64,000 nt of DNA from an uncultured Bacilli bacterium (lineage in GTDB: Bacteria > Bacillota_I > Bacilli_A > RF39 > UBA660). Positions within the stretch are counted from its first letter, which is position 1; each line of letters begins with the position of its first letter. The translations under genes were made by a program, and so were the position numbers. The notes beneath the pieces are model-generated. The model had not been told where the DNA came from. It saw only the letters and a list, made by a program, of their open reading frames with translations, and searched no databases. Shown here one piece after another: positions 791 to 39,705 of the stretch. The stretch is taken from the NCBI GenBank assembly GCA_947628535.1, contig CANRAF010000002.1:41200-105199 (forward strand). Direction: 5' to 3'.

Positions 791-945
791 AAAAATCACC
801 AACTATATTCTACCACTAAAATCTATTTTTCACAATAATTATAAATTGTTTATTATAAGCAATTAATTACAAGGATAGACATTTAATTTTTTATCTTTTC
901 AAAATACTATTTTTAGTATATAATTGTATGGAGGTGATAGATAGT

Positions 946-1326
946 ATGAAAGATGATTGTGTGTTTTGCAAAATAATAAATGGAGAGATTCCTACAAATA
1001 AAATTTATGAAGATGATGAAGTTATTTCTTTTTTAAGTATTGATCCTGTAACTTATGGTCATACATTAATTATACCAAAGAAGCATTTTACTGATTATAC
1101 TGATATTGATTTAGAAACTTTAAACTATATAAATAAAATTGGTAAAAAAATATATAAAATGCTTTGGGAAAATTTAAAATGTGATGGAATGAAACTTGTA
1201 CAAAATAATGGAACACCTCAGGAAGTTAAACATTATCATTTACATCTAATTCCTATTTTTGATAATGAGCCTTCTGGTAAAGATGATTTTGAAAAAGTTT
1301 TAAAGGAAATAAAAAATGGTAACTAA
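946..1326 (+). CDS. HIT-family (histidine triad) nucleotide hydrolase
   Basis: Histidine triad HYHLHLIP and N-terminal CVFCKI motif. RBS GGAGGTGA (931-938) lies 7 nt before the ATG at 946; the ORF-track ATG at 928 falls inside that RBS. Confidence 0.8.
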   Translation: MKDDCVFCKIINGEIPTNKIYEDDEVISFLSIDPVTYGHTLIIPKKHFTDYTDIDLETLNYINKIGKKIYKMLWENLKCDGMKLVQNNGTPQEVKHYHLHLIPIFDNEPSGKDDFEKVLKEIKNGN

Positions 1327-1398
1327 TGTTACCTTTTTATTTTGAATTTTTTAATCATTTATTTTCTAATATAAACCATAATAATAAAGGTGAATATT

Positions 1399-2355
1399 AT
1401 GAAAATAAGACTTGGGTATGTTGATGGACCTTTCTCTCTTCCTATTAGTTATTGCCATACTATTACTTATACAAACTTTAAAAAACTTGATGATAAAGTA
1501 GCTTACTTCAAACTTAAAAATATAGTTAATACTAATCTTGATAATTTTTTAAAAGTGTTAAAATTTAATAAACAAAATAAAATTACTTTTTATAGAATGA
1601 GTCATACTATTGTACCTTTAGCAACTCATAAAGATGTAGATTTTGATTATATAAATTTATTTAAAGAAAAATGGATAAAAATTGGTGATTATATAAAGAT
1701 GAATAATATGAGAGTAGACTCTCATCCAAATCAATATTGTATTTTAAATAGTACTAATAAGGATGTGGTAAATAATAGTTTCGATATTTTAAAATTTAAT
1801 TATAATTTATTTAAGGCAATGGGTATAAAATCAAAAGTAGTTCTTCATATTGGAAGCTTAAATGGTAACAAAGATGATGCTATTAAAAGATTTAAAGAAA
1901 ATTTTTATAAATTAGATAAAAATATTAGAGATATGGTTACTTTAGAAAATGATGATAAAATATTTAATATTGTTGATACTTTAAATCTTTGTGAGGAGTT
2001 AGATATTCCTATGACTTTAGACTATCATCACTATTTATGTAATAAAAATGGTGAAAAATTACATGATTATCTTGATAGAATTATTAATACTTGGAAAAAT
2101 ACTGGTTTAAATCCTAAAATACACTTTTCAACCCCTAAAAATAAGAAAGAATTTAGAAGTCATAGTGATTTTATTGACTATAAATCATTTGTAAAATTTC
2201 TAAATATATTACTACCTTTTAACTGTGATTTTGATATTATGCTTGAATGTAAAGCAAAGGAAGAGGCTCTTTTTAGGCTTTCAAGACAGCTTAAATTTAC
2301 TAAAGGTATAAGTTGTTTAAACACAAGTACTTTTATAATTAAAAAAAGTATATAA
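1399..2355 (+). CDS. uvsE: UV DNA damage endonuclease UvdE/UvsE
   Basis: Begins MKIRLGYV as UvsE proteins do; about 319 aa. RBS AAGGTGA is followed by the ATG at 1399; the track start at 1390 is a GTG. Confidence 0.75.
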   Translation: MKIRLGYVDGPFSLPISYCHTITYTNFKKLDDKVAYFKLKNIVNTNLDNFLKVLKFNKQNKITFYRMSHTIVPLATHKDVDFDYINLFKEKWIKIGDYIKMNNMRVDSHPNQYCILNSTNKDVVNNSFDILKFNYNLFKAMGIKSKVVLHIGSLNGNKDDAIKRFKENFYKLDKNIRDMVTLENDDKIFNIVDTLNLCEELDIPMTLDYHHYLCNKNGEKLHDYLDRIINTWKNTGLNPKIHFSTPKNKKEFRSHSDFIDYKSFVKFLNILLPFNCDFDIMLECKAKEEALFRLSRQLKFTKGISCLNTSTFIIKKSI

Positions 2356-2387
2356 AATTTATATACTTTTATTTACTTATTTTATTA

Positions 2388-2413
2388 AAAAAACGCTACT
2401 TAAGCGTTTTCTT
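2388..2413. terminator. bidirectional rho-independent terminator between convergent uvsE and rbfA
   Basis: Stem AAACGCT, loop ACTTA, stem AGCGTTT, flanked by an A-run upstream and a T-run downstream. The hairpin overlaps the rbfA stop codon. Confidence 0.5.
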
Positions 2414-2747
2414 TGTCATTTATTTCTTTTATTTTTCTTTCGATATTTTCCCCATATTCAATAGATGTATCATAATGAAAACTTATTTGGGGCATTTTTC
2501 TTATTTGAATATTTTTAGAAAGTTCAATTTCAATAAAGTTTGCTGCACTATTTAGGGCAGATTCTATTTCATCTTTATTTTCTCTATTTAAACAAGTAAA
2601 GTATACTTTAGCAAATGATAAATCATTAGTAACATCACAATCTGTAATAGTTGCATCTTTGGCTTTAGGATTTTTTACATCCTCTAAAATAATTCTACTT
2701 ATTTCTCTTACAAATAAGCTACCTATTTTTTGTGATTTAATACTCAT
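2400..2747 (-). CDS. rbfA: ribosome-binding factor A
   Basis: 115-aa ORF immediately downstream of infB with a 4-nt overlap, as in the conserved nusA-infB-rbfA operon. Confidence 0.8.
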   Translation of the reverse strand: MSIKSQKIGSLFVREISRIILEDVKNPKAKDATITDCDVTNDLSFAKVYFTCLNRENKDEIESALNSAANFIEIELSKNIQIRKMPQISFHYDTSIEYGENIERKIKEINDKENA

Positions 2748-4861
2748 CTTTTTACCTCTTCTAAAGTATAGACTTCTAAAATGTCTCCTTCTTTAATATC
2801 GTTAAAGTTTTCTATTGTTATACCACATTCTATACCTTTTTTAACTTCATTTGCTTTTTCTTTACCTCTTTGAAGTGATGCAATAATACCATCATAGATT
2901 ACTATTCCATCTCTTACTACTCTAACTTTATCAGCATTTTTTACTACTCCATCAGTTACAAAGCAACCTGCAATAGTACCAACTTTAGAGAATTTAAACA
3001 ATTGTCTTACTTCTACTGTTCCTAAAACTTTTTCTTTATATTCAGGATCTAACATACCAATTATTGCATCTTCAAGTTCTTCAATTATTTTATAGATTAC
3101 GCTGTGAAGTCTAATATCAACTCCATATTCTTTAGCAAGTTCTACTGTTTTACTATTTGGTCTTACATTAAATCCAATTACAATAGCATGAGAAGCATTG
3201 GCTAAAACTATATCACTTTCTGTTATAGTTCCTACTCCACTTCTAATTACTTCTACTTTTACATCATGAGAATCAATTTTAGAAAGGGATTGTTTGATTG
3301 CTTCTTCACTACCTTTTACATCAGTTTTTAAAACAACACTTATTTTTTTTGTACCTTCTTTTACTTTGCTGAATAAATCTTCTAAAGTCATACCAGAACG
3401 ATTAGTATTCTCATCTTTTGCTCTTAATTTTCTATCTTCTGAAACTTTTCTTGCTTCTTTTTCTGTTTCAAATGCCATGAAACGATCACCAGCTACAGGA
3501 AGTTCATTTAATCCAGTAATTTCTACAGGCATACTTGGACCTGCCATTGCTATATTTTCGCCTTTATCATTTTTTAAGGTTCTTACTTTACCATATTCAG
3601 TTCCTACTACAATAGGATCACCAAGTCTTAAAGTACCATTTTGAATTAAAAGGGTTACGATAGATCCAATATTTTTATCAAGTCTCGCTTCAATTACAGA
3701 TCCTGTAGCATAACGATTAGGATTGGCCTTTAAATCATTCATTTCTGCTACTAATAAAATATTTTCTAAAAGTTCATCAATACCTACTTTAGTTTTAGCA
3801 GATATTTTATTTACTAAAGTATCTCCGCCCCACTCTTCAGGAGTAAGTCCAGCTTCTGATAACTCTGTTAAAACTTTTTCTGGATTAGCATTTGGAAGAT
3901 CAATTTTATTTATCGCTACAATTATTGGAACATTAGCAGCTTTAGCATGATCTATTGCTTCAACTGTTTGAGGTTTTACTCCATCTTCTGCTGAAACTAT
4001 AATAATTACAATATCAGTAACAGAGGCCCCACGAGCTCTCATTTCAGTAAAAGCAGCATGACCAGGAGTGTCAATAAAGGTTATAAGTTTTTCTCCTACT
4101 TTTACTTGATATGCTCCAATGTGCTGAGTTATTCCACCTGCTTCACCACTTACTACACTTGTTTTTCTAATAGCATCAAGAAGTGATGTTTTACCGTGAT
4201 CAACATGTCCCATAATTGTTACTACAGGTGGTCTTTCTACTAAATCTTCTTCTTTATCGATTATTTCGTATTCTTCAAAATTTGATATATCTCTTGTTTC
4301 TTCTTTTTTTAACTCTTTTCCATAGTCAATTACTAAAAGTTCAGCAGTTTGAAAATCTAAACTTTGATTTAAATTAGCCAGTGCTCCGAGATCAAATAAT
4401 TTTTTTATTAAACTCGCAGAATTTTCGTTTAGAGAATCTGCTAAATCTTTAACTGTCATTCCTTCTTTATATAGAACTATCTTTTCTTCTTCACTACTAT
4501 TAGTTTTTAACTTTTCTTTATGTTTATATAAATCTTTTTTAGCCTTTAAATATTCTTTATTATCCATTTTTTTAGAAACTGGTTTCTTTTTCATTTTGAC
4601 ATGACTTTTATCTTGAACTGATTCTATTCTTAAATCTTTTTCAAGTTCATCGTCATCTACTACCTCATCGTCTTCTTCTATTTCTTTATCTTCATCTATA
4701 GAATCCTCTTCTTTTGCGAGTTCATTATCTAATAATATGATATCTTCTTCACTTAGTAAATCGTCAGAATTTTTAGCTTCAATACCAAGTTTTTCACATA
4801 GTGCTAATATTTCTTTTTCGTCTTTTGAAACATCTATAGCATATTCTTTCACATTCATCAT
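2744..4861 (-). CDS. infB: translation initiation factor IF-2
   Basis: 705 aa. GTPase motifs GHVDHGKTSLLD, DTPGH and NKID; acidic and lysine-rich N-terminal region. Confidence 0.95.
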   Translation of the reverse strand: MMNVKEYAIDVSKDEKEILALCEKLGIEAKNSDDLLSEEDIILLDNELAKEEDSIDEDKEIEEDDEVVDDDELEKDLRIESVQDKSHVKMKKKPVSKKMDNKEYLKAKKDLYKHKEKLKTNSSEEEKIVLYKEGMTVKDLADSLNENSASLIKKLFDLGALANLNQSLDFQTAELLVIDYGKELKKEETRDISNFEEYEIIDKEEDLVERPPVVTIMGHVDHGKTSLLDAIRKTSVVSGEAGGITQHIGAYQVKVGEKLITFIDTPGHAAFTEMRARGASVTDIVIIIVSAEDGVKPQTVEAIDHAKAANVPIIVAINKIDLPNANPEKVLTELSEAGLTPEEWGGDTLVNKISAKTKVGIDELLENILLVAEMNDLKANPNRYATGSVIEARLDKNIGSIVTLLIQNGTLRLGDPIVVGTEYGKVRTLKNDKGENIAMAGPSMPVEITGLNELPVAGDRFMAFETEKEARKVSEDRKLRAKDENTNRSGMTLEDLFSKVKEGTKKISVVLKTDVKGSEEAIKQSLSKIDSHDVKVEVIRSGVGTITESDIVLANASHAIVIGFNVRPNSKTVELAKEYGVDIRLHSVIYKIIEELEDAIIGMLDPEYKEKVLGTVEVRQLFKFSKVGTIAGCFVTDGVVKNADKVRVVRDGIVIYDGIIASLQRGKEKANEVKKGIECGITIENFNDIKEGDILEVYTLEEVKR

Positions 4862-4887
4862 AATAAATCACCACTTTCTTTTATTTT

Positions 4888-5145
4888 TTAACACATTTTT
4901 TCAAGTTCATCATAAATGGCTTCCGGTACTTTGACTTCAAGATGTTTTTCTAAAATTTTAGAATCTCTAGCTTTTTTTATAACATCTTTATCAAGTTTTA
5001 AATAAGCACCGCGTCCATTTGCTTTTCCTTTTTCATCTATTATTATTTCTTTTTCTGGTGTTCTAACTACTCTTATAAGTTCTTTTTTAGGACATTTTTC
5101 ATTAGTTACAACACAGGTTCTCATTGGAATTTTTACATTTTTCAT
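4888..5145 (-). CDS. ylxR: YlxR/RnpM-family RNA-binding protein (DUF448)
   Basis: 85 aa with conserved MRTCVV...GRGAY motifs. Located between nusA and infB as in other Bacillota. Confidence 0.75.
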   Translation of the reverse strand: MKNVKIPMRTCVVTNEKCPKKELIRVVRTPEKEIIIDEKGKANGRGAYLKLDKDVIKKARDSKILEKHLEVKVPEAIYDELEKMC

Positions 5146-5146
5146 A

Positions 5147-6217
5147 TTATTCCCCTACTTTAATACTTATGCCCATTTCTTTAACTTGTTCGCTATTTTT
5201 TACATCAATTTTATACTTTGTAAGACGAGATGCTAAGCGAACGTTTTGTCCTTTTTTACCAAGTGCAAGTGAAAAATCATCTCCATCTGCAATGGCAAGT
5301 GCTTCTCCTTTTTTAGGATCTAATATATAAACTTGAACGTTTTTAGCAGGATTAAGAGCATTTTTTATAAATTCTTCTTTATTTTCAGAATACTTGATAA
5401 TGTCTAATTTTTCTCCTGATAATTCTTTAATTATATTAGATATTCTAGAGCCTTTTTCTCCGATGCAGCAACCAATTGGATCAATGTTTGCATATTCTGA
5501 GTAAACAGCAACTTTTGATCTTGAACCAGCATCTCTTGCAACACCATAAATCATAACAGAACCATCTGCGAGTTCTGGTATTTCAAGTTCAAATAGTCTT
5601 TTTACAAAATTATAATGACTTCTTGATAAAAGAATTATTGTTCCTTTGGTATTTGAATTTACTTTAGTAACGTATGCTTTAATAGTTGATCCCATTTCTA
5701 TTTTTTCATCACCAATTAATTCTGATTTTGGAAGTATTCCATTAGTTCTTCCTAAATCAATATAATAGTTGTTTTCATCTTCTAAAGCTACTGCTCCAGA
5801 AACTAATTCTCCTTCTTTATCTTGAAATTCTAAAATTAAACTATTTCTTTCTGCTTCTCTTATTTTTTGAATTACAACTTGTTTAGCAGTTGAAGCTGCA
5901 ACACGTCCAAAATTATCTGGTGTTACTTCTTCTTCAATTGTACTTCCTATTTCTAATGTTTTATCTATTTTTTTAGCATCTTCTAAAGAAATTTCTACTT
6001 CATCATCTTCTACTTCTTCAACAACTGTTTTATAAGAATAAATTTTTATTTCTCCTGTTTCTTTGTTAATATTTATTTTAGCATTAGTACGAGAATTAAA
6101 ATTTTTCTTGTATGCTGAAAGTAAAGCTTGTTCCATAGTTTCAAAAATATAATCACGGTCGATATGCTTTTCTTTTTCAAGCAAATCCACGGCATTTAAA
6201 AATTCTTTACCATTCAT
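5147..6217 (-). CDS. nusA: transcription termination/antitermination factor NusA
   Basis: 356 aa with an S1 and two KH domains (GxxG: GEKGSRI, GKKGQNV). Overlaps the rimP stop by 1 nt. Confidence 0.9.
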   Translation of the reverse strand: MNGKEFLNAVDLLEKEKHIDRDYIFETMEQALLSAYKKNFNSRTNAKININKETGEIKIYSYKTVVEEVEDDEVEISLEDAKKIDKTLEIGSTIEEEVTPDNFGRVAASTAKQVVIQKIREAERNSLILEFQDKEGELVSGAVALEDENNYYIDLGRTNGILPKSELIGDEKIEMGSTIKAYVTKVNSNTKGTIILLSRSHYNFVKRLFELEIPELADGSVMIYGVARDAGSRSKVAVYSEYANIDPIGCCIGEKGSRISNIIKELSGEKLDIIKYSENKEEFIKNALNPAKNVQVYILDPKKGEALAIADGDDFSLALGKKGQNVRLASRLTKYKIDVKNSEQVKEMGISIKVGE

Positions 6218-6559: not shown

Positions 6560-6847
6560 TTAACTTGTTATGTAATCGTGATAACCTCCGAGAACATTTA
6601 CGACTTTATATCCCATATTATCTAATTTTGAACAAGTTTTTACACTTTCCATTCCTTGAGTACAGTATATATAATATTCTTTTGATTTATCTAAATATTT
6701 GCTTGGATCCATAAGTAGAAAATTATTTGGTATGTTTTTACTACTTGGAATGGATCCTAAATTATATAAATAATTTTTTCTAATATCTATTATATTTACT
6801 CTACCAACCATTCCTTTTAATTCACTTGCTTTTATGCTTTTATACAT
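6560..6847 (-). CDS. single-domain rhodanese-like sulfurtransferase
   Basis: 95 aa. Active-site cysteine loop YCTQGMES. Confidence 0.6.
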   Translation of the reverse strand: MYKSIKASELKGMVGRVNIIDIRKNYLYNLGSIPSSKNIPNNFLLMDPSKYLDKSKEYYIYCTQGMESVKTCSKLDNMGYKVVNVLGGYHDYITS

Positions 6848-6949: not shown

Positions 6950-6982
6950 AAAAAACCCTTGAAATATAATAATTTCAAAGGT
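6950..6982 (-). terminator. rho-independent terminator after the T4SS coupling-protein gene
   Basis: Imperfect 9-10-bp stem CC(C)TTGAAAT ... ATTTCAAAGG, followed on the minus strand by TTTTTT. Confidence 0.5.
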
Positions 6983-6991
6983 TTATAATTT

Positions 6992-9301
6992 TTATTCATC
7001 AAAGAAATCATCAAAGAATTGATCATCAGTTACTTTAAATTTAGAAACTTCTGAATCCTTTACTGGTTCTGCTTTTTTCATTTCTGGTATATTTTGCTTA
7101 TGTGGTATAGAATTTATCTCAGGAGCTTCTTCACTGTGAACTGTTATATTTGGCTTGCTATTTAAATCAGATTGTTCTTCTTTAGGATTTACATTATTTA
7201 TAAATCCGGCGAGCATAGTAGGTGCTATATCAGAAGCAGGAGAATTTTTTAAATCCGGTTTTTCTTCTTTTGTTTCCTCTATTTTGCTTTCTTCAGTTTC
7301 AGTTTTAATTTCTTCTTTAACTTCAGTTTGTTTCTTCTTTTTTTCGGCCTCTTTTGCCTTTAATTTTTCTGCTTCTTCTTGTTCTTCTTTTTCAAGTTCT
7401 GCTATTTTAGCATCTATTTTTTTGACTAAATCATCAACATTTAATGGTTCTTGGGTATCATGACTATTATTTACACTATTATTTGTCTTTAAGGCTTCAA
7501 AAGGATTATCAAATGGAGGCATCATTCCTCCAGGTATACCTGGCATAGAAGGTGCTCCTGCCATATTCATGAATTTATCTTTTCTTTTATTTTTCATAAA
7601 CTCTTTTAAATTAAAAACTTTAACATCCTTTTTTTCTCTTTCAACAAATGGATCAGCTTCAATTTTAGGTGATCCCCAATCTATTTCAAAATTAGGTTTA
7701 AGCCTTGTTTTATAAGGATTTAATCTAATTCTTTTAACTATTGCTTCAAACTTTTTCATTCTTTGAAGATCTGCTACTGTTGCAAGAGGACGAGTTTCTT
7801 CTCTTTCTTTTTCTCCTTTTCCTACTTTTACAATCTTATCTCCACATAACTCGCTTATTTCTTTAAGAGCTGCAAGTTCTGTAGTAAGCAGGTAAAGTAA
7901 ATTATTACAGTTACTTCTGATAGTTTGAGCATCTTCTTTTCCATAAACTGCATCTAATTGAGCAAAGTTTTGAATAATCATCGTAAATCTAATTAGTCTA
8001 GATCTAGCCGCAGTAATCATTGTTGTTATGTCCTTTAAAGGTGGCATATTAGCAAACTCATCTAGAATAAAGTTTGTTCTAATAGGAAGCTCTCCTTTTG
8101 GAGAATTTTGAGCAGTATCAATTAAAGATTCATAACATTGTTTGATAAAGATAGTTGCTAAGGCGTGATAAGTTTTCTTTTCATCTTGGATTATCATAAA
8201 AACTGCTGTTTTTTTCTTACCAATTGTATCAATATCAAAATCATTTTGAGAAAGCATTTCTGATAAGTTTTCACGTGATGAGAAAAGACGAATTTTTTGT
8301 CTAAATGTAGATAAAATAGAACCTTTTGTTTCTTCTGGTGCAAAAATTGTACCAGATGCACAGGTATAAGCAGCACCTGCAGGATCTTTATCGTTAAAGT
8401 ACTCTTTAATATAGGTGCTTCTGGCCCCAAACTTTTCTTCTCCAACTGTTGTCATAAGTGAAATACTATTAATATTTATTTCTTCTTCTTTAGCATCTTC
8501 AAAAAGCCCTAAAGCAAGTCCCGCAAAATAATCTGCTGAGGTTTTTTCCCAGAATGGATCTTTATTAGCACTTGATTCTTCATATAGAATATTAGCTGCT
8601 AAATCATCTAAAAGTTCCATAGCTTTATCAGTATTACCTTCTTTGTATAACTTATATGGAAGATGAAGCGGATTCCAAGTATTACCACGTTGTGGATCAC
8701 GGAAATTTAAAACAAGTATTTGGTATCCTCTTTGTTTTAAAAGGCCGGCACTTTCACGGTAAATTTCACCCTTAGGATCTGTTACAATCATTGATTCACC
8801 CTTTTTAGCAAGTATTTTTACTAATGGATGAATTATACACTGAGTTTTACCTGTACCAGTAGAACCAATTACTAAGTTGTGACTTTCTCCATCATCTACC
8901 CATAATTTTTGACCATTACTTACAATTGGAAATCCAGCATGTTCATAATTTTCATCACTAACATCAAGTTCTGATAAAGTTTTTTTCATTTCTTTATCAG
9001 TACACCATCTTGAAAAACCTTTTTCATCTTTTGGTTCAGATGAAATACCAAAACCCTTTTCCTGTTCAAAGAAGTAATTCTTTACTGTTGCAAACAAGAA
9101 AACCATGGCGAAGGCATAAAAAACGATAACTGCTGGTAAATTTTCAACTAGTGCTGTAAATGGATTAAGCCCGGCAAATGTTCCTTCATTAGCAAATGAA
9201 GAAATATTATTAACTAAAATTGATACTACTATTAAAAGAAGTAGTGCAAAAAGTGCAAATATCATCCAGTCTTGTGCTGAAGCTTTAAATTTTAGTTTCA
9301 T
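6992..9301 (-). CDS. type IV secretion coupling protein (VirD4/TraG/PcfC-like T4CP)
   Basis: Two N-terminal TM helices; Walker A LVIGSTGTGKT; Walker B FILDEFANM. About 230-aa K/E-rich low-complexity C-terminal tail ending DDQFFDDFFDE. RBS AAGGGAGGG. Confidence 0.8.
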   Translation of the reverse strand: MKLKFKASAQDWMIFALFALLLLIVVSILVNNISSFANEGTFAGLNPFTALVENLPAVIVFYAFAMVFLFATVKNYFFEQEKGFGISSEPKDEKGFSRWCTDKEMKKTLSELDVSDENYEHAGFPIVSNGQKLWVDDGESHNLVIGSTGTGKTQCIIHPLVKILAKKGESMIVTDPKGEIYRESAGLLKQRGYQILVLNFRDPQRGNTWNPLHLPYKLYKEGNTDKAMELLDDLAANILYEESSANKDPFWEKTSADYFAGLALGLFEDAKEEEININSISLMTTVGEEKFGARSTYIKEYFNDKDPAGAAYTCASGTIFAPEETKGSILSTFRQKIRLFSSRENLSEMLSQNDFDIDTIGKKKTAVFMIIQDEKKTYHALATIFIKQCYESLIDTAQNSPKGELPIRTNFILDEFANMPPLKDITTMITAARSRLIRFTMIIQNFAQLDAVYGKEDAQTIRSNCNNLLYLLTTELAALKEISELCGDKIVKVGKGEKEREETRPLATVADLQRMKKFEAIVKRIRLNPYKTRLKPNFEIDWGSPKIEADPFVEREKKDVKVFNLKEFMKNKRKDKFMNMAGAPSMPGIPGGMMPPFDNPFEALKTNNSVNNSHDTQEPLNVDDLVKKIDAKIAELEKEEQEEAEKLKAKEAEKKKKQTEVKEEIKTETEESKIEETKEEKPDLKNSPASDIAPTMLAGFINNVNPKEEQSDLNSKPNITVHSEEAPEINSIPHKQNIPEMKKAEPVKDSEVSKFKVTDDQFFDDFFDE

Positions 9302-9326
9302 AGTTTACCCTCCCTTGGTTTATTTA

Positions 9327-11117
9327 TTATAGTCCTCCACCAGTTCCAAACGAATCTAATTCTTCTGGTGTAACTATTACTGTAATACGCATTCTACGGG
9401 ATCCACAAACAAATAAGGCTTCTCCCTGTGAATAACGTTTTATACTTTCTTTTTCATTATCATTTAAATCTATAAGCAATGAAAGATCTTCAACTGCTTG
9501 TTTTTTAAGGCCCATTACTAAATAATAAGATGCATTATCAAAGATTGCTTTTCCTTGAGTTATTACTGCCTGTGATGTAAAATCACTTGGTTGTTGTGTA
9601 ATTATTATATTTCCCGTATTGTATTTACGAGAACGTCTTTGAATTTGAGCTAAAAAGTCAGCTCCTAAAACATTTCCTCCAGAAAGAAGAACATGTGCTT
9701 CATCTACCATTAATACTGTGTTTTGTGTTGGGTCTAAACATAGACTCCAAGCATATTTTAAAACGTTAAATAATAGAGCATTTCTAATATTAACATCTGT
9801 ATTCATAAGTTCTCTAATATTGAATACTATGAAATTACTACGTGGTGATATAGTTGTTTTTCCATTAAAGTAAAATCTAAGTTCATTAGTAAGTGGTCTT
9901 ATTTTAAGTTCAAGCCTTTCCATTATATCACGTTCATGAGTCATATCTGTCATTGAAGTAAGTTTTCCTTTGATTGTTGTATATACGTCATCAAATGTTG
10001 GATAGTGTTCACTAGTAAATGTTGAAAAATCAGTATTAAATCCTATTCCAAATCTTTGATATGTCTCTTGAGTAAGTTCTATAAATAAATTAAGAACATC
10101 CTCTTCAATAGATGGATCATAGTATTTCATAAATGCTTTTAAAAACTGAAGTGTTTTGGTAAGAACTGTGTATCCAAGGCCTTGCCTTATTTCATCATCA
10201 TCAGCATCTATTAATACTTCAAATGGATTAATAAGTCCAAATTCGCCACCCTTTCCTAAATCTATTGTATCTCCACCAACGGCTTCAACCATTTCTTTAA
10301 GTTCGTTTTCAGGGTCGATTGCTACTATTTGATAACCGTTTCTTATAGCGGTTCTTAAAAGTAATTTAGCAGCAGTACTTTTACCTGAACCAGAAGTACC
10401 TAAAATAATCATATTAGCATTTACTCTGTTATGTTCTTTTCTCATTTGATATAGGAATTGGTTAAACATAACAACCCCACCAGAGAAATCTGTTCCAAGA
10501 AGAACTGAAGGCCCTGGATCTTTAATGCTATCAAATATATATGGATACATTCCAGCCATTGTAGGACTTGGCATAATTGTTCCAATTCGCTCTTCTACTT
10601 CTTGTTTTGGGAAAACTGGAATTATTGATTTTAAAACTTGTTCTTGTTCAAATCTTAAAGGAATTGCTCTAAGCTGCATAGCATCTAAATAGTTTTTAAC
10701 TTGAAGTTTTTTAAGATCTAAATCTTCTTTTGACTCGCCAGTTACTATAATATGCATTTGAAAATCAAACGTTTTTGATTGAGCAGCTGCAAGTTGTTGA
10801 ATGAATGATTCAAGTGTTTCATAGTCTTGTCTTATACTTTCTTGATATGTTGCATCTTTTTCTTCTTGATATCTTATTTTCATTGAAGCAAGTTCTTTAT
10901 TAAGCATTTTTGTTAAAGTTGAAAATGGTACAGGGATATGCTTAATTACTATTTTAACACCTGGCATATTAGTTATGTTTGATAAAAATCCTACACCGAC
11001 ATATCTAGGATAACCAACAACTGTTAAAATAGTCATGAATTTATCACTAGCAACTATCATGTTGCTGTTTGTAAAATCAAGCCCTTTTGGAGCCACTTCG
11101 CTTTTAAAGTAACTCAT
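9327..11117 (-). CDS. VirB4-family T4SS ATPase (TrsE/PrgJ/ConE-like), short 596-aa form
   Basis: Walker A GTSGSGKS; Walker B LMVDEAH. Has its own RBS GGAGGGG. ATGA start/stop overlap with the upstream 233-aa ORF. Confidence 0.8.
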   Translation of the reverse strand: MSYFKSEVAPKGLDFTNSNMIVASDKFMTILTVVGYPRYVGVGFLSNITNMPGVKIVIKHIPVPFSTLTKMLNKELASMKIRYQEEKDATYQESIRQDYETLESFIQQLAAAQSKTFDFQMHIIVTGESKEDLDLKKLQVKNYLDAMQLRAIPLRFEQEQVLKSIIPVFPKQEVEERIGTIMPSPTMAGMYPYIFDSIKDPGPSVLLGTDFSGGVVMFNQFLYQMRKEHNRVNANMIILGTSGSGKSTAAKLLLRTAIRNGYQIVAIDPENELKEMVEAVGGDTIDLGKGGEFGLINPFEVLIDADDDEIRQGLGYTVLTKTLQFLKAFMKYYDPSIEEDVLNLFIELTQETYQRFGIGFNTDFSTFTSEHYPTFDDVYTTIKGKLTSMTDMTHERDIMERLELKIRPLTNELRFYFNGKTTISPRSNFIVFNIRELMNTDVNIRNALLFNVLKYAWSLCLDPTQNTVLMVDEAHVLLSGGNVLGADFLAQIQRRSRKYNTGNIIITQQPSDFTSQAVITQGKAIFDNASYYLVMGLKKQAVEDLSLLIDLNDNEKESIKRYSQGEALFVCGSRRMRITVIVTPEELDSFGTGGGL

Positions 11118-11815
11118 ATTGGCATCACCCCTCCAGATTCATATTTTTTTCCTCCATTTAAGAAGTTATCTATTATCATTCTAAGATCGTCATTTGATGT
11201 TTGACTTGCCACAAGACCGGCACTGGCTAAACTATTTATCAAATTACGAAGTCTTTTTTGTAAAAGTTCTCCATTTTTTTCTTTAAACAGAATAAAGTAT
11301 TCAGTATCTACAACATCATTATTGATAAAATATTCTCCTTTTTGCATATCTTGTGAGATGAGTTTTCTTATTCTTTGATCTTGATTTTTATTATAAAGAA
11401 CTTGAAGTTCTGCTTGATAAACTGCGATATCTACAGGACGATCTGCTACTACTAACCAAAATTCAAAATCAATAGTGTTATAGAAATTCATAAGTCCTAT
11501 TAATGCATTATCCATGGAAACTTGGTCTAATATGAAAATGTTTCTAGGTTGTATTTTAACACCTGTAATCATTTCATTTCTATTATTATACATAATTCCA
11601 TTACTAATAGCTTTAAGTGGTAACCAATTTTCTGTATATTTGGGATTTTTTTGAGCGGCTTTTGGCATAACTTTGCCACTTTGTTTATTTTCCTCATTAT
11701 TATTTACAGGTGTATTTATACTATTTATACCCGAATTAACACTTTGATTTACTTGCCCATTTCCCGAATTATTCATCTGATTGTTCATATTTATAACACC
11801 AACCTCTCCATACAT
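11114..11815 (-). CDS. T4SS-associated protein of unknown function, translationally coupled to virB4
   Basis: 233 aa with an N/Q/S-rich low-complexity N-terminus and no TM segment. Its stop overlaps the virB4 start (ATGA). Might be a detached VirB4 N-terminal-domain-like protein. Confidence 0.4.
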   Translation of the reverse strand: MYGEVGVINMNNQMNNSGNGQVNQSVNSGINSINTPVNNNEENKQSGKVMPKAAQKNPKYTENWLPLKAISNGIMYNNRNEMITGVKIQPRNIFILDQVSMDNALIGLMNFYNTIDFEFWLVVADRPVDIAVYQAELQVLYNKNQDQRIRKLISQDMQKGEYFINNDVVDTEYFILFKEKNGELLQKRLRNLINSLASAGLVASQTSNDDLRMIIDNFLNGGKKYESGGVMPI

Positions 11816-12089
11816 ATTTTCTTCGGTTTACAAAGTAAAATTTATACATTTCATGAATAAATACTCTTGAATTATGATAATTTGCAATTGGGAATACTAG
11901 AAATGCTGAGATAAAGGCAGGAGTTAAAGTTATTATTGCTGCCCAAATCTCAATTATTGGGAGTATTGTAAAGAGTATAAATGATATTAATATTCCACTT
12001 GCCAATATTATCAAATCAAGTTTACTTAAAAAACCAAATATTAAACCTTGTTTTTTACTATTAGCAGGTACTAAATAATTGTAATCCAT
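11769..12089 (-). CDS. PrgI/TcpE-family small membrane protein (VirB3-like)
   Basis: 106 aa with two long hydrophobic helices. N-terminus YLVPANSKKQGLIFGF fits the PrgI-family pattern. Lies just upstream of the VirB4 gene, as VirB3 homologues do. Confidence 0.5.
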   Translation of the reverse strand: MDYNYLVPANSKKQGLIFGFLSKLDLIILASGILISFILFTILPIIEIWAAIITLTPAFISAFLVFPIANYHNSRVFIHEMYKFYFVNRRKYVWRGWCYKYEQSDE

Positions 12090-12112
12090 GTAGTATCACA
12101 TCCTTTTTATTA

Positions 12113-14659
12113 TTAACTTTTTTTAGAATAGTCATCAAACGCTTTTGCTTTACCATATTCAGTAGATTTTTGAACTGCAATAATTTCATCACTGTATTGA
12201 TTAGATTTATCTCTTGCAATTCCTTCTACATCTTCATATGCTGCAAAAGTTTGAACATCTCTTTCAGTTTTTCCAAGTTCTCTTTGAAGTGCTGTATTAA
12301 CTCTAAGTTCTGTCCTCATTTCTGTTTCGGCTTGTTCAATTTTTCCTTTTGCTGATTGTTCAAAATCTATTGATAAAACTTGTCCATTAGCACCAACATA
12401 TTTATCCGATTGACCAGAATCTATCCATTGTTGCCCATCATAATATTCAATATTGCCTTGACTATTTTTTCTATTTGTTTCATTTAAAGCAATGAAATCA
12501 CTTCGTTCTTTTTTGTAACCAGCTTTTCCTGTTTTTGTTACTTGATTACCATTTGCATCTATATACGTATAAGTATAATTATCTGGATCAAGTTCTAATT
12601 TTCTCTTTTTATCAGATAAAAAATTGGAACTCTCTGCTAAATTTTCTATATTATCTTTATGTTTTCTAAAATTGTCTAGTAATTCCTTTTTATCTACTTT
12701 ATCTTTAATTTGATTATCCATTTTAGTTTTTGGAGAATAACCTACAGTTCCTGCTACTCCTGCCACTGTTCTTTGCCAAAAACCTAATCCATTTTGCTTG
12801 GCATCATTTATTCTTGCATTCTTAGCAGCAATCTGGTTGGATCCACCTGTTATATTTCCTTTGGAGCCAGAACCTGCTCCTAAGGCTGCACCTTTAAAAG
12901 CACCACTTATTCTTCCAAGACCTTTCCCTGTTGCAAATCCAACAGCAGTTCCAAGTGCTCCGCCTGCGGCAAATCCTGCTGCACTTTTACCCATATTCAT
13001 AATATCTTTAAATGAACTTCCCATAGAATCAAGTCCAAATAATTTAGAAATCATACTAGGTAAAGCTTTTGCAAATACTAAAATTGCTACAATATAGAAA
13101 AATTTAATTAATAAGTTTTGTTCCCAAAAACTTTCTGATATTAATTTTAAAAGATCTACTGCAATAGCAATTGCAAACAACTTTATAAATAAATCTACAT
13201 AAATAGAAAGATACATTTTAACCCATTGATTAAATATTTTATCTTTGGGATTGACATAACTTATAATTGGAATTGGTGCAAGCATTTCGAGTAATAATAA
13301 TTTAAATCTACGGATAATTATATCAATACATAGAATAAGTAAATATACTATTAATCCAATACCAGCAACTAATGAAGCAATAAATCCTAAATTCAAAGTA
13401 TCATCTGACATTAATTCTATAATATTATCATTTGCTTCTGAGTTCTCAAACATATGTTCTTGCGCATTTTTACATTTTTCTTCTGACTCTTCATCTTCTG
13501 CACATTCTTGAAACGTTTTTGCAGTTGTTTGAGCAAACTTAATAGCTTCGTAAGAATGTTTTTCGCTTAATCCCTTAAAATATTTTTTACCACCATCAAA
13601 AGCACTAGTACTTGTATTTTTACCTATAAATAAATTATTAGTTTCAACCGAATGACTTGCTTGTTGCCCACTTGCATTCATCTTAAGGCCTTTAATCGCT
13701 TTTTCAAAATCATTATAGTTATTGTACCCTCCCATAATACCTATATTTTTACACGTTTGCGGTCCACTTGCAGTTACTACTTCAGAATCACAACCATCTA
13801 TTTCACCTTTAGGCATTGATTTTTGTGCCGAATATGTACTATCGCTTGTTTTTTTTAAATATTTTGGACAAGTAGTAGGAAAATTAGAAGAAGTTACATT
13901 AAATACAGTACCCATTGTTATTTTACCAGGGAAAGGTGAATAATAACCATTATCTGAATCTCCGTGAATTCGCTGATCACTTCTATCATAATAAGAAAAT
14001 TTGCATGTACCATCTCCACAATTTAATTTCCCAGTTGGCCCAGTATCTGGGTTATTATAAAATTCAATCTTATATACATCATTTATTACATAAGAATGGG
14101 TCCAATTAGTACCCACTAAATTTTTCTTATGTGATTTAACATTTATGTAATAACAAGTTAACTTTTCATTTGCAGCATAAACATCATCCACAAGTAATTT
14201 AGATTTAGAACTCATATTATCTGAATGTTTTTCTTTTATACTACTAACAGGCATTAATCGATTTATCAGACCATCATCAGCGAGAATTGCCTGTTCAACT
14301 TCAATTAATAAACCGTCCTTTTTATTAAAAATTATAAAATCTGGCGATAACGCTATTAATAGAATTATACATGTTACAATACGCTTTATCATTTTACCTG
14401 CGCCAGCTTCTTTGTCACTTACTGTATCAGGATTAATAATCATTTGAAGCATACCTATTGTAACTCTAAATAGCATAAATACCCCTGCTAACACGTATAT
14501 TGTTTGGGTAAAATTAAAGTTTAAACTAGCAAATGCATTACCATCGTTACGAACTAACTCTAATAAAATATCATATATTCTAGCAACTAATGTGTATAGG
14601 CCTGCAATTATATTAAATAAAACACTTGCAACAATTTCATTAAATAACAATATTTGCAT
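12113..14659 (-). CDS. VirB6/TrbL-like polytopic T4SS channel protein with a large Cys-rich extracytoplasmic domain
   Basis: 848 aa. N-terminal TM helices; a hydrophilic domain of about 280 aa with at least 12 Cys (CGDGTC, TTCPKY, DGCDSE, QTCKNIG, FQECAEDEESEEKCKN); 5-6 more TM helices; a Gly-rich segment; and a hydrophilic C-terminal extension of about 270 aa. RBS AGGAGG. Confidence 0.55.
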   Translation of the reverse strand: MQILLFNEIVASVLFNIIAGLYTLVARIYDILLELVRNDGNAFASLNFNFTQTIYVLAGVFMLFRVTIGMLQMIINPDTVSDKEAGAGKMIKRIVTCIILLIALSPDFIIFNKKDGLLIEVEQAILADDGLINRLMPVSSIKEKHSDNMSSKSKLLVDDVYAANEKLTCYYINVKSHKKNLVGTNWTHSYVINDVYKIEFYNNPDTGPTGKLNCGDGTCKFSYYDRSDQRIHGDSDNGYYSPFPGKITMGTVFNVTSSNFPTTCPKYLKKTSDSTYSAQKSMPKGEIDGCDSEVVTASGPQTCKNIGIMGGYNNYNDFEKAIKGLKMNASGQQASHSVETNNLFIGKNTSTSAFDGGKKYFKGLSEKHSYEAIKFAQTTAKTFQECAEDEESEEKCKNAQEHMFENSEANDNIIELMSDDTLNLGFIASLVAGIGLIVYLLILCIDIIIRRFKLLLLEMLAPIPIISYVNPKDKIFNQWVKMYLSIYVDLFIKLFAIAIAVDLLKLISESFWEQNLLIKFFYIVAILVFAKALPSMISKLFGLDSMGSSFKDIMNMGKSAAGFAAGGALGTAVGFATGKGLGRISGAFKGAALGAGSGSKGNITGGSNQIAAKNARINDAKQNGLGFWQRTVAGVAGTVGYSPKTKMDNQIKDKVDKKELLDNFRKHKDNIENLAESSNFLSDKKRKLELDPDNYTYTYIDANGNQVTKTGKAGYKKERSDFIALNETNRKNSQGNIEYYDGQQWIDSGQSDKYVGANGQVLSIDFEQSAKGKIEQAETEMRTELRVNTALQRELGKTERDVQTFAAYEDVEGIARDKSNQYSDEIIAVQKSTEYGKAKAFDDYSKKS

Positions 14660-14674
14660 AATTAACCTCCTATA

Positions 14675-15004
14675 CTATAGCCCTATTTTACAAACACCAG
14701 ATGTTAGTCCTGCCATATACAATATAAAATTCAAAACTACTGGAACAAAAAAGATTGCTACTCCAATTACAATTCTTTTTACTGTTCTTGTAAGAGCAGT
14801 TTTCATATCTTTTTCTTCTTGAGAAATTACTGCCTGAACCATATCAACACTACATAAAGCAATTACTAAACATGGTGTTGCTATTTGTATCCAGGAAAAT
14901 ACTTTTGTTAAAATATCTCTAAAGTCAGCTCCAAGTAAATTACAATCACTTTGAGTAGGAAAATTAACTAAAAAATTTATATTGTTAATTATAAAATCTA
15001 ACAT
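14675..15004 (-). CDS. small two-helix membrane protein, VirB2/TrbC-like putative T4SS pilin (paralogue 3)
   Basis: 109 aa. Shares the second-helix motif IGVAIFFVPVV with the two upstream paralogues; Cys near the C-terminus (SGVCKIGL). Confidence 0.4.
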   Translation of the reverse strand: MLDFIINNINFLVNFPTQSDCNLLGADFRDILTKVFSWIQIATPCLVIALCSVDMVQAVISQEEKDMKTALTRTVKRIVIGVAIFFVPVVLNFILYMAGLTSGVCKIGL

Positions 15005-15095
15005 TTAAATCACCTTCACAGTATTCATCTATTTTATTATAACAAAAAAAAAAGCACAAGACAATAAGTTTTGTACTTTTATTTACATATTTTTA

Positions 15096-15512
15096 TTAAC
15101 TTTTACCCTTACATGAATTGGCATTAGGCTTTGACACACAAGCTAAACATTTATTGTAATTATCATCAGCTTGGTTCTCTGCTCCAGATACCATACCAAA
15201 TATTATTTGTACAATAACTACTACAAAGAATATTGCTACCCCATAAATAATTCTCATAAGTAACATTTTTTGGGCTTCTTTTATTTTTTTATCTTCTCCA
15301 GCCATTACTGCTTTACCTAAATCAATTGTACCAAGTAAAACGATAATTACGGGGATAATGATTTTCATTACATTTACTATTTGTCCAACAAATTGCCAAA
15401 TTATTAAAGTTTTTTCACAAAAATTATCTGATGTTTGTAGTGTTGCACCACTACCAGCTTTTGCTAAAAACTGAATAATATCCATTGGCATTGCACTTAA
15501 AAATTCTAACAT
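15096..15512 (-). CDS. small two-helix membrane protein, VirB2/TrbC-like putative T4SS pilin (paralogue 2)
   Basis: 138 aa. IIPVIIVLLGTIDLGKAVMAGEDKKIKEAQK is nearly identical to the loop of 15585..16022. C-terminal tail CLACVSKPNANSC. Confidence 0.45.
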   Translation of the reverse strand: MLEFLSAMPMDIIQFLAKAGSGATLQTSDNFCEKTLIIWQFVGQIVNVMKIIIPVIIVLLGTIDLGKAVMAGEDKKIKEAQKMLLMRIIYGVAIFFVVVIVQIIFGMVSGAENQADDNYNKCLACVSKPNANSCKGKS

Positions 15513-15584
15513 ATTAATCTCTCCTTCTATCTATAACTATAATACTATATATAATACTGCTGTGTCAAACATTTTTTTTTAATT

Positions 15585-16022
15585 TTACACTTCTTCTCTT
15601 CCATATAAATTATCTTGGTTTATATCTTCATTTTCTTGTTGACTATTTTCATCATAATTATTTATCTCATTTTCTTGATTACTTTTAGATTCTTCAACAT
15701 ATTTTAAACAATTTTTGCTGTGTGGTTTAGTTGCACATTCCCAGCATATTTTATAATCACCTTCATCTGTTTCAACTCCGAGAAGGCCAAATATTACTTC
15801 TACAATTGTAAATATAAAGAATATTGCTACCCCATAAATTAATCTTCTAATGAATGCTTTTTGGGCTTCTTTTATTTTTTTATCTTCTCCAGCCATTACT
15901 GCCTTACCTAAATCAAGCGTACCTAAAAGAATAATTATAACTGGTATAATAATTCTAATTATATATATAATTTCACCGACAAAATTCCATGCGGCAGCAC
16001 TATCGGCACAAAAGGTATCCAT
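15585..16022 (-). CDS. small two-helix membrane protein, VirB2/TrbC-like putative T4SS pilin (paralogue 1)
   Basis: 145 aa. Helix-loop-helix IIPVIIILLGTLDLGKAVMAGEDKKIKEAQK. C-terminal CWECATKPHSKNC tail followed by an acidic N/E-rich end. RBS GGTGG. Confidence 0.45.
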   Translation of the reverse strand: MDTFCADSAAAWNFVGEIIYIIRIIIPVIIILLGTLDLGKAVMAGEDKKIKEAQKAFIRRLIYGVAIFFIFTIVEVIFGLLGVETDEGDYKICWECATKPHSKNCLKYVEESKSNQENEINNYDENSQQENEDINQDNLYGREEV

Positions 16023-16210
16023 TAAACCACCACCAAACTACTTGGAAAGTATATCATAATATATGTTAAATGTCAATTAAAATACAATTAAATTTAAATT
16101 TCATAAGATTAACTAAGTAAAATTTATAATATAATAACTATCTTTTTATTTGCTGTAATTTTAAACATTATTTTATTTAAATATTTATTTTATTTTTTAA
16201 ATGTGTTATT

Positions 16211-16657
16211 ATGTATCTTGAGGTGTTAATATTGAAAAAATTTAGATGGTTAATAATACTTGCTATTATTATTATTGCTTTAGTTGCTGTTATCTTTATA
16301 TTTTCTAATGATGAAAGCAAATATATTCATGAAATATCTTTTAGTGAAGTTGTTAATAAAATAGAAAATAAAGATGATTTTATTCTTTATATTAAACAAA
16401 ATGGATGTGAACATTGTAGAGCATTTACTCCTAACTTTGTAAGTGTGTTAAGTGATAATAATTTAGAAGCTTATGCTCTTAATCTTAGTGATATTTCTGA
16501 AGAAGATAATGAATCTTATGAAGAAATGTTTGATATTGATGGAACTCCAACAGTACTATTCTTTGATGATGGTAATGAAAGTTTAATTAGAATTAGTGGT
16601 GAACAAACTAAAGCAAATATTAAATCAAAACTTGAAGCAACTAAATTTATAAAATAG
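16211..16657 (+). CDS. membrane-anchored thioredoxin-like thiol-disulfide oxidoreductase
   Basis: N-terminal TM anchor followed by a CxxC active site (NGCEHCRAF); 148 aa, TlpA/ResA/StoA-like. The true start may be the TTG at 16232, which follows a GAGGTG RBS. Confidence 0.6.
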   Translation: MYLEVLILKKFRWLIILAIIIIALVAVIFIFSNDESKYIHEISFSEVVNKIENKDDFILYIKQNGCEHCRAFTPNFVSVLSDNNLEAYALNLSDISEEDNESYEEMFDIDGTPTVLFFDDGNESLIRISGEQTKANIKSKLEATKFIK

Positions 16658-38161: not shown

Positions 38162-38190
38162 AAAAAGGACTTTTTAGTCCTAATGTTCGT
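38160..38190. terminator. bidirectional terminator between the vanY-like gene and the lipoprotein gene
   Basis: AGGACT-tttt-AGTCCT flanked by A7 and T-rich sequence. Confidence 0.5.
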
Positions 38191-38896: not shown

Positions 38897-38927
38897 TTCT
38901 AGTGTGAGAGAATTTTTTTATTTTATA

Positions 38928-39695: not shown

Positions 39696-39705
39696 ATAGT
39701 CCTCC

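Follow-up and report, generated by a model that had tools for sequence, protein, structure and literature searches.

Type IV secretion systems (T4SSs) of Gram-positive bacteria are known almost only as DNA-transfer machines: a review of December 2025 gives DNA transfer as the function of nearly all of them and calls dedicated non-conjugative T4SSs in Gram-positives a "long-standing question" (PMC12857230). The closest described case is that of Patescibacteria (Southlakia epibionticum), where a chromosomal, lineage-wide T4SS without an associated relaxase is essential for epibiotic growth (PMC12102498, PMC12857230). Two features are held to set this system apart from those of all other monoderms, namely its VirB2-like pilins and the fact that the cell needs it (PMC12857230). 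Herein, we describe a T4SS gene cluster from the GTDB order RF39, located at positions 6992-16022 of a 64,000-nucleotide stretch of DNA from an uncultured Bacilli bacterium (assembly GCA_947628535.1, contig CANRAF010000002.1, positions 41,200 to 105,199); this whole stretch, with a G+C content of ~26%, is referred to as the window. No member of RF39 has been cultured; genomes of the order measure 1.5-1.9 Mb and are short of several amino-acid pathways, and the order is phylogenetically near Mycoplasmatales (PMC7301438). We consider it somewhat more probable than its negation that the cluster encodes a functional, vertically inherited chromosomal T4SS, and that this T4SS belongs to the core traits of a whole order-level lineage of gut Bacilli with small genomes and no cultured member. 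That the system is vertically inherited and functional, and is not an integrative and conjugative element (ICE), we hold with high confidence. That its function is export or exchange unrelated to conjugation is a proposal for which we find the balance even.

The cluster consists of eight tightly packed genes, all on the minus strand, as established from the open reading frame (ORF) list and translations; they lie where the original prediction, made from the letters of the window, had placed them. The first three genes encode VirB2-type T4SS pilin paralogues of 145 aa (15585-16022), 138 aa (15096-15512) and 109 aa (14675-15004). Taken singly, the pilins score weakly against Pfam, with PF18895 matches of E = 0.009 for the 138-aa protein and E = 0.002 for the 109-aa protein and no match for the third copy. 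The 145-aa gene shares 79% nucleotide identity over 203 nt with the 138-aa gene, and its product groups with a 118-member pilin family collected from related loci. At the level of this family, the predicted presence of three VirB2/TrbC-like proteins was borne out, as 65 of the 118 members match PF18895 T4SS_pilin (best 1.8e-9) and 3 match TrbC/VirB2. Cys122 is invariant in the family and Cys32 is kept in at least 90% of members; read from the sequence, one cysteine stands ahead of membrane helix 1 and the other past helix 2. The pilin genes are followed by a gene for an extended VirB6/TrbL-like channel protein of 848 aa (12113-14659), whose predicted identity is upheld by PF19597 TrbL_4 (6e-8; 32.7 bits, exceeding the cut-off of 27) and which also shows weak matches to the mycoplasma ICE families MMCAP2_0566 and Mbov_0396. 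This protein appears to be built from N-terminal transmembrane (TM) helices, a Cys-rich outside domain of ~300 aa, the TrbL_4 membrane core and a long C-terminal tail.

The next three ORFs are collinear on the single 894-position NCBIfam model NF045975, a mycoplasma-ICE VirB4 family. Positions 4-94 of the model match a PrgI/VirB3-like membrane protein of 106 aa (11769-12089), positions 98-280 a protein of 233 aa (11114-11815; 2e-12), and positions 298-889 a VirB4 ATPase of 596 aa (9327-11117). The PrgI-like protein scores 26.4 bits against PF12666 (1e-5), slightly below the cut-off of 27; its assignment is backed by position, size and the collinear match, and the gene at the corresponding position of the Bacillus thuringiensis plasmid pBMB67 is annotated "PrgI family". 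From the collinear alignment, the 233-aa ORF is therefore taken to be a TrsD/TraC-like, stand-alone VirB4 N-terminal domain; it had been noted before as a "coupled" ORF, correctly as to its existence and with no explanation of what it is. Its orthologues bear PF26593 TraC-like, and in pBMB67 the 227-aa product encoded upstream of virB4 shares 25.5% identity with it (6e-13). Searched against PDB sequences, the protein returned no match, so its identity rests on profile and synteny evidence. VirB4 itself carries the P-loop_TraG/AAA_10 domains (PF19044, PF12846), has NF045975 as its top NCBIfam model (4e-99), and aligns through residues 201-595 to the solved VirB4 ATPase domain PDB 4AG5 (8e-51). 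The last gene encodes a VirD4 coupling protein of 769 aa (6992-9301; PF02534, 5e-54) that exceeds the cut-off of NF045973 conju_CD1115 (1e-95; 320.9 bits against 250) and has two N-terminal TM helices and a Lys/Glu-rich C-terminal tail of ~230 aa. The Walker motifs GTSGSGKS and VLMVDEAH of VirB4 and the motifs GSTGTGKT and ILDEFAN of VirD4 are present in the translations, as had been claimed.

To place the cluster among its relatives, one genome per GTDB species was scanned. A close VirB4 relative is encoded by at least 554 of the species representatives, and the best 80 among them, in which VirB4 is 71-96% identical, were retrieved as loci (numbered L below, with f for their recurrent protein families). 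More than 100 database homologues of VirB4 share 73-96% identity, and nearly all are 592-598 aa long. The best 80 are all metagenome-assembled genomes from human or animal guts, labelled uncultured "Bacilli", "Tenericutes", "Mycoplasma sp." or "Acholeplasma sp. CAG:878", and 2 of them are closed 1.5-Mb chromosomes. VirB4 carriers with a GTDB placement belong to order RF39, and Ca. Coprosoma, which is among the best 80, has been placed in that order (PMC8035907). The synteny comparison called for in the original prediction gave the same cluster order in 80 of 80 genomes: pilin(s), VirB6, PrgI, TrsD-like protein, VirB4, an optional hydrolase module and VirD4. An organization that had been thought unusual is thus the norm of a whole order-level lineage. 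The outer flanks vary by lineage yet always consist of housekeeping genes (RmuC, DedA, TypA, SufB, TrpRS, germination proteins), and the mraZ-pbp2B flank is common to the closest relatives with enough flank (L007, L011). When the library was clustered at 50% identity, every full-length VirB4 of the clade fell into one cluster, with the next matches at 45%, 42% and then 35% or less.

Variation on this plan was seen in individual relatives. A tandem duplication of pilin-VirB6-pilin-VirB6 occurs in some (L015, L018, L020), and in L018 two YhcG-type PD-(D/E)XK nuclease genes stand between virB4 and virD4 (L018:10768-12600). In many lineages, the interval between the pilins and VirB6 encodes a protein of 350-560 aa in which a large outside domain, rich in Cys and led by a signal peptide, is fused to a C-terminal T4SS_pilin domain (PF18895, 3e-5) (families f23, f27 and f54; L023, L027, L049, L053, L084 and others). 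These proteins look like pilin-anchored adhesins.

The rates of evolution of the cluster genes were compared between the window and its closest relatives, whose MraZ, RsmH, PBP2B, FtsL, RelA and Ffh are 73-88% identical. VirB4 showed 92-95% amino acid identity, a nonsynonymous rate (dN) of ~0.04 and a ratio to the synonymous rate (dN/dS) of ~0.04; since dS is ~1 for all genes and therefore saturated, this and all following ratios are approximate. In the same loci, Ffh, PBP2B, RsmH and MraZ had dN of 0.10-0.19 at a dS equal to that of VirB4, so that VirB4 dN is 3-5 times below that of flanking housekeeping genes. The other cluster genes spread over a wide range, with dN/dS of 0.06-0.13 for the TrsD-like protein, 0.12-0.18 for VirD4, 0.13-0.27 for PrgI and 0.12-0.44 for the pilins (0.12-0.26 for the 145-aa copy). 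VirB6 was the fastest, with a dN of 0.42-0.67, and dN/dS stayed below 0.6 in all cluster genes. The equal dS of cluster and flanks argues against a recent horizontal arrival, and the range of rates among its genes makes it unlikely that the cluster was swept as a whole in recent times. Across loci, BLAST-based VirB4 identity tracks that of the neighboring RmuC (Pearson 0.84, 325 pairs) and DedA (0.82), and VirB4 lies above both in mean conservation. Walker A and B are intact in 80 of 81 VirB4 proteins, the single broken-looking one being that of L022, and in 64 of 65 VirD4 proteins the Walker motifs are intact. The system is old, vertically inherited and strongly constrained. Because of the low dN, the intact ATPase motifs and the gene order conserved lineage-wide, we exclude a decaying element and an ordinary ICE; the former had been listed as an option and is refuted by the intact motifs and strong purifying selection.

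The surroundings of the cluster agree with this picture. On the virD4 side lie genes for a rhodanese, rimP, nusA, ylxR, infB and rbfA, and on the pilin side a divergent thioredoxin-like gene is followed by pbp2B, ftsL, rsmH, mraZ, yqeY and ffh. Housekeeping genes thus stand on both sides, as predicted for the rimP-nusA-infB and mraZ/pbp operons; the description of the flanks as housekeeping missed that the thioredoxin-like and rhodanese genes are themselves conserved cluster neighbors. Pfam scans took in every window ORF of at least 85-90 aa and found no relaxase, no tyrosine, serine or DDE recombinase and no replication initiator in the 64-kb window, in line with the original prediction. Neither a relaxase nor a recombinase was found among the recurrent neighbor families of the 80 related loci, and tblastn with the MobP3 relaxase of pBMB67 gave no match in the window or in ~1.6 Mb of related loci. 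No att-like direct repeats bracket the cluster, merely low-identity AT-rich chance repeats. The only tRNA of the window lies at 50.1 kb, 34 kb off the cluster, with none flanking it, and an Rfam scan of the window returned nothing besides tRNA. A bracketing relaxase, integrase and att pair, named beforehand as the signs of an ordinary ICE, was accordingly not found within the window. The suggested composition check gave a cluster G+C of 0.296 and a third-position G+C (GC3) of 0.154, against 0.257 +/- 0.030 and 0.124 +/- 0.028 for the rest of the window; both values fall inside the range of infB, ffh and mraZ, and the GC-skew and composition profile showed no island signature. The composition of the cluster is ameliorated. 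Together with the conserved order in 80 genomes, the slow VirB4 and the divergence that tracks RmuC and DedA, this strongly supports the earlier view of a chromosomally fixed, probably domesticated T4SS.

Compared with the T4SS of Patescibacteria, the RF39 system is alike in being chromosomal, lineage-wide and without an associated relaxase, in its monoderm core of the mating-pair-formation (MPF) class FATA (VirB3/PrgI, TrsD-like protein, VirB4, VirB6), and in an array of sequence-divergent VirB2-like pilins. TrsD-type proteins are abundant in Patescibacteria (PMC12102498). In S. epibionticum, a peptidase and a lysozyme adjoin virB4, and the RF39 parallel is a hydrolase encoded downstream of virB4 in a sister clade. 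Both groups have small genomes and limited biosynthesis. Every genomic hallmark that could be compared is shared. RF39 differs in belonging to the Bacillota with a normal peptidoglycan wall, and its virD4 lies inside the operon, whereas in Patescibacteria virD4 is usually remote from virB4. No Patescibacteria name appears among the named near VirB4 matches (Erysipelotrichales, one Mycoplasmatota plasmid, Bacillus plasmids), most clusters being unnamed, and the sequence comparison suggests that domestication in RF39 was independent of that in Patescibacteria. In the closed RF39 chromosomes OZ007022.1 (78-100 kb, L046) and OZ007038.1 (106-128 kb, L051), the cluster lies within ~7% of the record start; a T4SS location near dnaA/oriC has been noted in Patescibacteria. 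A further Gram-positive VirB/D4-type system, that of the Streptococcus suis 89K island, is reported to export protein and not DNA alone (PMC12857230). It is carried on a pathogenicity island confined to some strains and is no lineage-wide core trait, and it resembles the RF39 system by description.

The nearest mobile relatives of the RF39 system, a Thomasclavelia ICE and pBMB67, are only 29-35% identical, and among VirB4 relatives that bear a name, Erysipelotrichales come nearest, at 34-35%. The class assigned earlier, MPF-FA, is corrected to MPF-FATA, with Erysipelotrichales ICEs, pBMB67-type plasmids and mycoplasma ICEs as nearest relatives. The Thomasclavelia ramosa ICE (L091), whose VirB4 is the nearest named at 34%, shares the core order of a small protein, VirB6 (704 aa), proteins of PrgI size (121 aa) and TrsD size (225 aa), VirB4 (606 aa) and a hydrolase, and, like the RF39 window, it has SpaA-type surface proteins nearby. 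It differs in encoding a single-stranded DNA-binding protein and a Toprim primase as well as, at its border, a serine recombinase, all of which the RF39 system does without, and in being present in only some genomes, whereas the RF39 system is fixed. The best plasmid match is pBMB67, with VirB4 29.4%, VirD4 31.8% and the TrsD-like protein 25.5% identical. In it the MobP3 relaxase gene comes first, followed in turn by those for a CD1115-family VirD4, a small protein, TrbL, PrgI, the 227-aa protein and VirB4; farther along, a SAF/CpaB protein, ATPases of the AAA and T2SSE types and a pair of membrane proteins are encoded. It differs from RF39 in being a plasmid, presumably of the pAW63/pXO2 group, with partition and replication genes, in having the MobP3 relaxase directly upstream of virD4, in the placement of virD4 relative to the channel genes and in its short VirB6 (285 aa).

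Part of the pBMB67 plan recurs in sister RF39 lineages (71-74% VirB4 identity), where families f15, f11, f10 and f9 lie directly upstream of the pilins and are homologous to, and in the same order as, the plasmid module. In these lineages (L002-L005, L028-L085, ~500-5700), the module comprises an RcpC/CpaB-like protein, a T2SSE ATPase and two membrane proteins, together with a peptide of Flp size (~68 aa), 1-2 further proteins of ~150 aa and one of 330 aa. The homology in the same order to pBMB67 is the reason for treating the module as part of this T4SS subtype. We considered whether it might be a competence or Tad pilus or a SpoIIIA channel and rejected this: four of its families match the pBMB67 module, and no SpoIIIA family matched. 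Neither the window nor the +/-10 kb flanks of loci in its subclade contain the T2SSE-ATPase module.

Mycoplasma ICEs combine in one protein (Mbov_0397/CDS17 VirB4) the PrgI, TrsD-like and VirB4 regions that are three genes here, and against the VirB4 model and the two membrane-protein models of these ICEs the RF39 proteins all stay under the cut-offs (332 against 590, 50 against 90, 37 against 70). These ICEs transfer themselves and carry a DDE recombinase. They have neither VirB1-like nor VirB8-like parts (PMC12857230). In TrsC-TrsD-TrsE of pGO1/pSK41, a separate homologue of the VirB4 N-terminus, TrsD, stands between the VirB3-like and VirB4 genes (PMC12102498), as in RF39; that is a plasmid conjugation system with a relaxase, and the likeness is by description only. 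Outside the clade, the nearest outgroup VirB4 looked up (P0270, 585 aa, GCA_016648615.1; the representative of its cluster is at 42% identity) is likewise preceded by a gene for a TraC-like protein of 182 aa and directly followed by relA/spoT, uvrD and a NUDIX gene, an arrangement that hints at a chromosomal copy in a second lineage. The origin of the RF39 system would lie in the mating-pair-formation core of a Gram-positive MPF-FATA conjugative element that lost its relaxase, recombinase and replication functions and was kept for the benefit of the cell.

The eight genes appear not to be the whole gene set. In most lineages with 71-74% VirB4 identity, a peptidoglycan hydrolase of 420-930 aa is encoded between virB4 and virD4, with varying domains (M23 + lysozyme, SpoIID + CHAP, SpoIID + VanY, Amidase_5/NlpC) and accompanied by 1-2 small membrane proteins or lipoproteins. 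Within the subclade of the window (80-96% VirB4 identity), virB4 directly adjoins virD4. A four-gene minus-strand operon 24 kb away, at 38180-42976, was left out of the original prediction, which was right about the eight genes. Its first gene encodes a multidomain hydrolase of 839 aa (40457-42976; Peptidase_M23 + SpoIID + Peptidase_C39_2 by Pfam) that is 40-43% identical over ~250 aa to the sister-clade hydrolases found between virB4 and virD4. It is followed by genes for a 246-aa lipoprotein with a C-terminal membrane anchor (39706-40446; tblastn 1e-19 to family f17), a 255-aa paralogue of the latter with a signal peptide and C-terminal anchor (38928-39695; 4e-17 to f17), and a small 238-aa lipoprotein with a lipobox (38180-38896) and no Pfam family match, the position of which is kept in L087-L090. 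Family f17 comes after the in-cluster hydrolase in many sister-clade loci. The four-gene operon is kept in relatives L087-L090, and L031 presents an intermediate state, with virB4 and virD4 adjacent and a hydrolase-f17 pair ~8 kb downstream. By synteny, this module probably belongs to the T4SS as its displaced VirB1-type component. The 246-aa lipoprotein was also considered as the absent VirB8/TcpC-like part and rejected, since the best PDB match of its AlphaFold2 model (pLDDT 82.6) is Mycobacterium tuberculosis LppM (3e-6).

Just upstream of the displaced operon, on the same strand, lies a gene for a surface protein of 796 aa (43056-45446) with a signal peptide, three SpaA domains and a type I dockerin by Pfam, and a sorting-signal-like C-terminus (APDTG, a TM helix and a KKYK tail). 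A counterpart upstream of the hydrolase is present in two copies in L087 and is missing from L089. The protein is a possible adhesin with a weak link to the T4SS. A dockerin in a non-cellulolytic gut bacterium with a small genome hints at docking onto the cohesins of another organism. A thioester domain suggested by eye in its N-terminal domain found no support from Pfam or a PDB sequence search.

Two small genes adjoin the cluster itself. The thioredoxin-like gene on the plus strand (16211-16657) encodes a membrane-anchored oxidoreductase with a CEHC motif (PF00085 5.5e-9; weak PedC/BrcD and TrbB matches); its position, divergent from the pilin genes, is kept in 16 loci of the window's subclade. 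The minus-strand rhodanese gene (6560-6847) encodes a single-domain protein of 95 aa (PF00581 1e-12), and a rhodanese is found downstream of virD4, directly or 1-2 genes on, in 42 of 81 loci, distant lineages among them.

We take 6992-16022 to be one operon. Upstream of the first pilin gene, a consensus scan identified a promoter-like site, TTGACA-17-TATACT with a TG (16048-16076, minus strand; 11 of 12 matches), which is a candidate on this consensus match only. At the other end, an intrinsic terminator (6950-6983, minus strand) with a 13-bp stem and a U-run closes the operon after virD4; its hairpin (-14.6 kcal/mol, z = -5.8) agrees with the terminator predicted after the coupling-protein gene. 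The claim that each gene has its own ribosome-binding site (RBS) was correct for all genes but one: Shine-Dalgarno motifs precede all cluster genes except the annotated start of the 233-aa ORF. There, the codon-10 ATG is preceded by the ribosome-binding motif GGAGAGGTAGGTG, and the annotated ATG has none. The TrsD-like protein therefore probably starts at 11788 and is 224 aa long, and its overlap with prgI would be 20 nt, not 47 nt.

What the sequence shows is a constrained and seemingly complete set of parts for energizing, channel, pilins and wall opening, and no DNA-processing genes in the window or in roughly 1.5 Mb of related loci. From this we propose the following mechanism for export or exchange. 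VirD4 would pick a cytoplasmic substrate, and VirB4, tethered by PrgI/VirB3 and its TrsD-like partner, would power its passage through the channel of the extended VirB6. The wall would be opened by the displaced M23/SpoIID hydrolase, and the three VirB2-type pilins, each with a putative disulfide, would build a surface fiber or conduit. We speculate that the paired pilin cysteines are both exposed on the outer side and could link one end of the protein to the other; by analogy, this suggests an end-to-end disulfide perhaps comparable to TrbC/VirB2 cyclization. The adjacent thioredoxin-like protein may oxidize the pilins, and it is a plausible, if speculative, candidate for a pilin oxidase. Purifying selection on VirD4 argues for the export of cytoplasmic cargo and not for pure uptake or pilus assembly. 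The most likely use would be contact-dependent exchange of macromolecules with neighboring cells, not the spread of an element, and we think that the cargo is more likely protein than DNA; the essential relaxase-less T4SS of Patescibacteria would be the parallel.

Several observations weigh against this reading. The purifying selection on VirD4 fits DNA transfer equally well, and the relaxase search covered 64 kb here and +/-10 kb in each related genome. A less likely but serious rival is that RF39 carries a fixed conjugation apparatus that still moves DNA: a relaxase, known or novel, elsewhere in the genome would nick chromosomal oriT-like sites and VirD4 would feed the DNA, giving chromosomal gene exchange among RF39 cells like mycoplasma chromosomal or Hfr-like transfer. 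VirD4 stands beside the channel genes with intact motifs and a dN/dS of 0.12-0.18, the best model for VirB4 is the mycoplasma-ICE family, whose system mediates chromosomal transfer (PMC12857230), and nearly all characterized Gram-positive T4SSs transport DNA (PMC12857230). However, no relaxase was found in the 64 kb or the 80 related loci, in mobile relatives the relaxase adjoins virD4, and a device for gene exchange would not ordinarily be conserved more tightly than core genes across more than 500 species. The earlier option of an ICE with its processing genes elsewhere is very unlikely as far as an ICE is concerned; a relaxase acting in trans remains compatible with the data. An ordinary ICE or decaying remnant, with integrase, relaxase and attL/attR just beyond the sequence read, is extremely improbable. 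Its gene content derives from conjugative elements and the G+C of the cluster is slightly above the window mean (0.296 against 0.257 +/- 0.03), but core operons lie on both sides, with the mraZ-pbp2B flank shared by L007 and L011, and the cluster is in all 80 related species examined. Furthermore, dS equals that of the flanks with VirB4 dN 3-5 times lower, the ATPase motifs are intact with 1 of 81 VirB4 proteins (L022) looking broken, and border repeats or a bordering tRNA are missing. A further caution is that dS is saturated and the dN/dS values are approximate.

The remaining points against export concern the parts of the machine and its cargo. No VirB8-like (NTF2-fold) bitopic protein was recognized within the window, and no candidate effector was identified. 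The link between hydrolase and T4SS consists of synteny in sister lineages and domain-level homology, which falls short of proven orthology, and the predicted fold of the 246-aa lipoprotein is LppM-like, not one known from T4SSs. A machine for DNA uptake or release, serving competence or nucleotide scavenging like the Helicobacter pylori ComB system, the Neisseria gonococcal genetic island (GGI) or archaeal Ced, seems quite unlikely. Small genomes short of amino-acid pathways (PMC7301438) could favor scavenging, but ComB operates without VirD4, which is conserved here, and the GGI requires a relaxase. Weak NCBIfam similarity to CedB and CedD (47 and 17 bits, where the cut-offs are 600-700) is of the generic VirB4/VirD4 kind, and the Tad-like pilus/ATPase module adjacent in the sister clade is also part of the plasmid pBMB67 system and so is no evidence for competence. 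In Saccharibacteria, moreover, the essentiality of the T4SS is independent of ComEC (PMC12857230). Hardly more probable than uptake is that the machine now only assembles a surface fiber or adhesin, built of pilins and of proteins fused to them, with which to attach to host mucus, to particles or to other cells. The multiplied and fast-diverging pilin genes, the 350-560-aa outside-domain proteins of sister lineages with a C-terminal T4SS_pilin domain (f23, f27) and the adhesin-like SpaA/dockerin protein beside the hydrolase operon all fit such a fiber. VirD4 is dispensable for pilus biogenesis in model systems, yet here it is under purifying selection with intact ATPase motifs.

A literature search found no paper linking RF39 with a T4SS, and the two main RF39 genome studies (one of them PMC7301438) leave secretion and conjugation genes unmentioned. 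Under the reading of a vertically inherited T4SS for export or exchange, the RF39 system would be the second case of a relaxase-less, non-conjugative T4SS in monoderms, now in the Bacillota, fixed in the chromosomes of hundreds of gut species, free of DNA-processing genes throughout the DNA read, with a pilin array and a VirB4 more tightly conserved than the signal-recognition-particle protein Ffh. It offers a natural experiment in the conversion of conjugation machines into cellular organs. It also provides a sequence-defined target for metatranscriptomics, imaging, heterologous reconstitution and co-culture of a prevalent uncultured gut lineage. A bolder idea, which we consider doubtful, is that RF39 cells, which are abundant in the guts of humans and animals, depend on the T4SS and its pilin array for obligate contact-dependent exchange, in which metabolites or macromolecules would be taken up or traded or effectors injected into bacterial or host cells. 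If true, this would be an independently evolved second "essential, non-conjugative monoderm T4SS", hitherto known from Patescibacteria only, and it would account for VirB4 being so extremely conserved as well as for the lack of success in growing RF39 on its own. The system may thus bear on the resistance of RF39 to cultivation.

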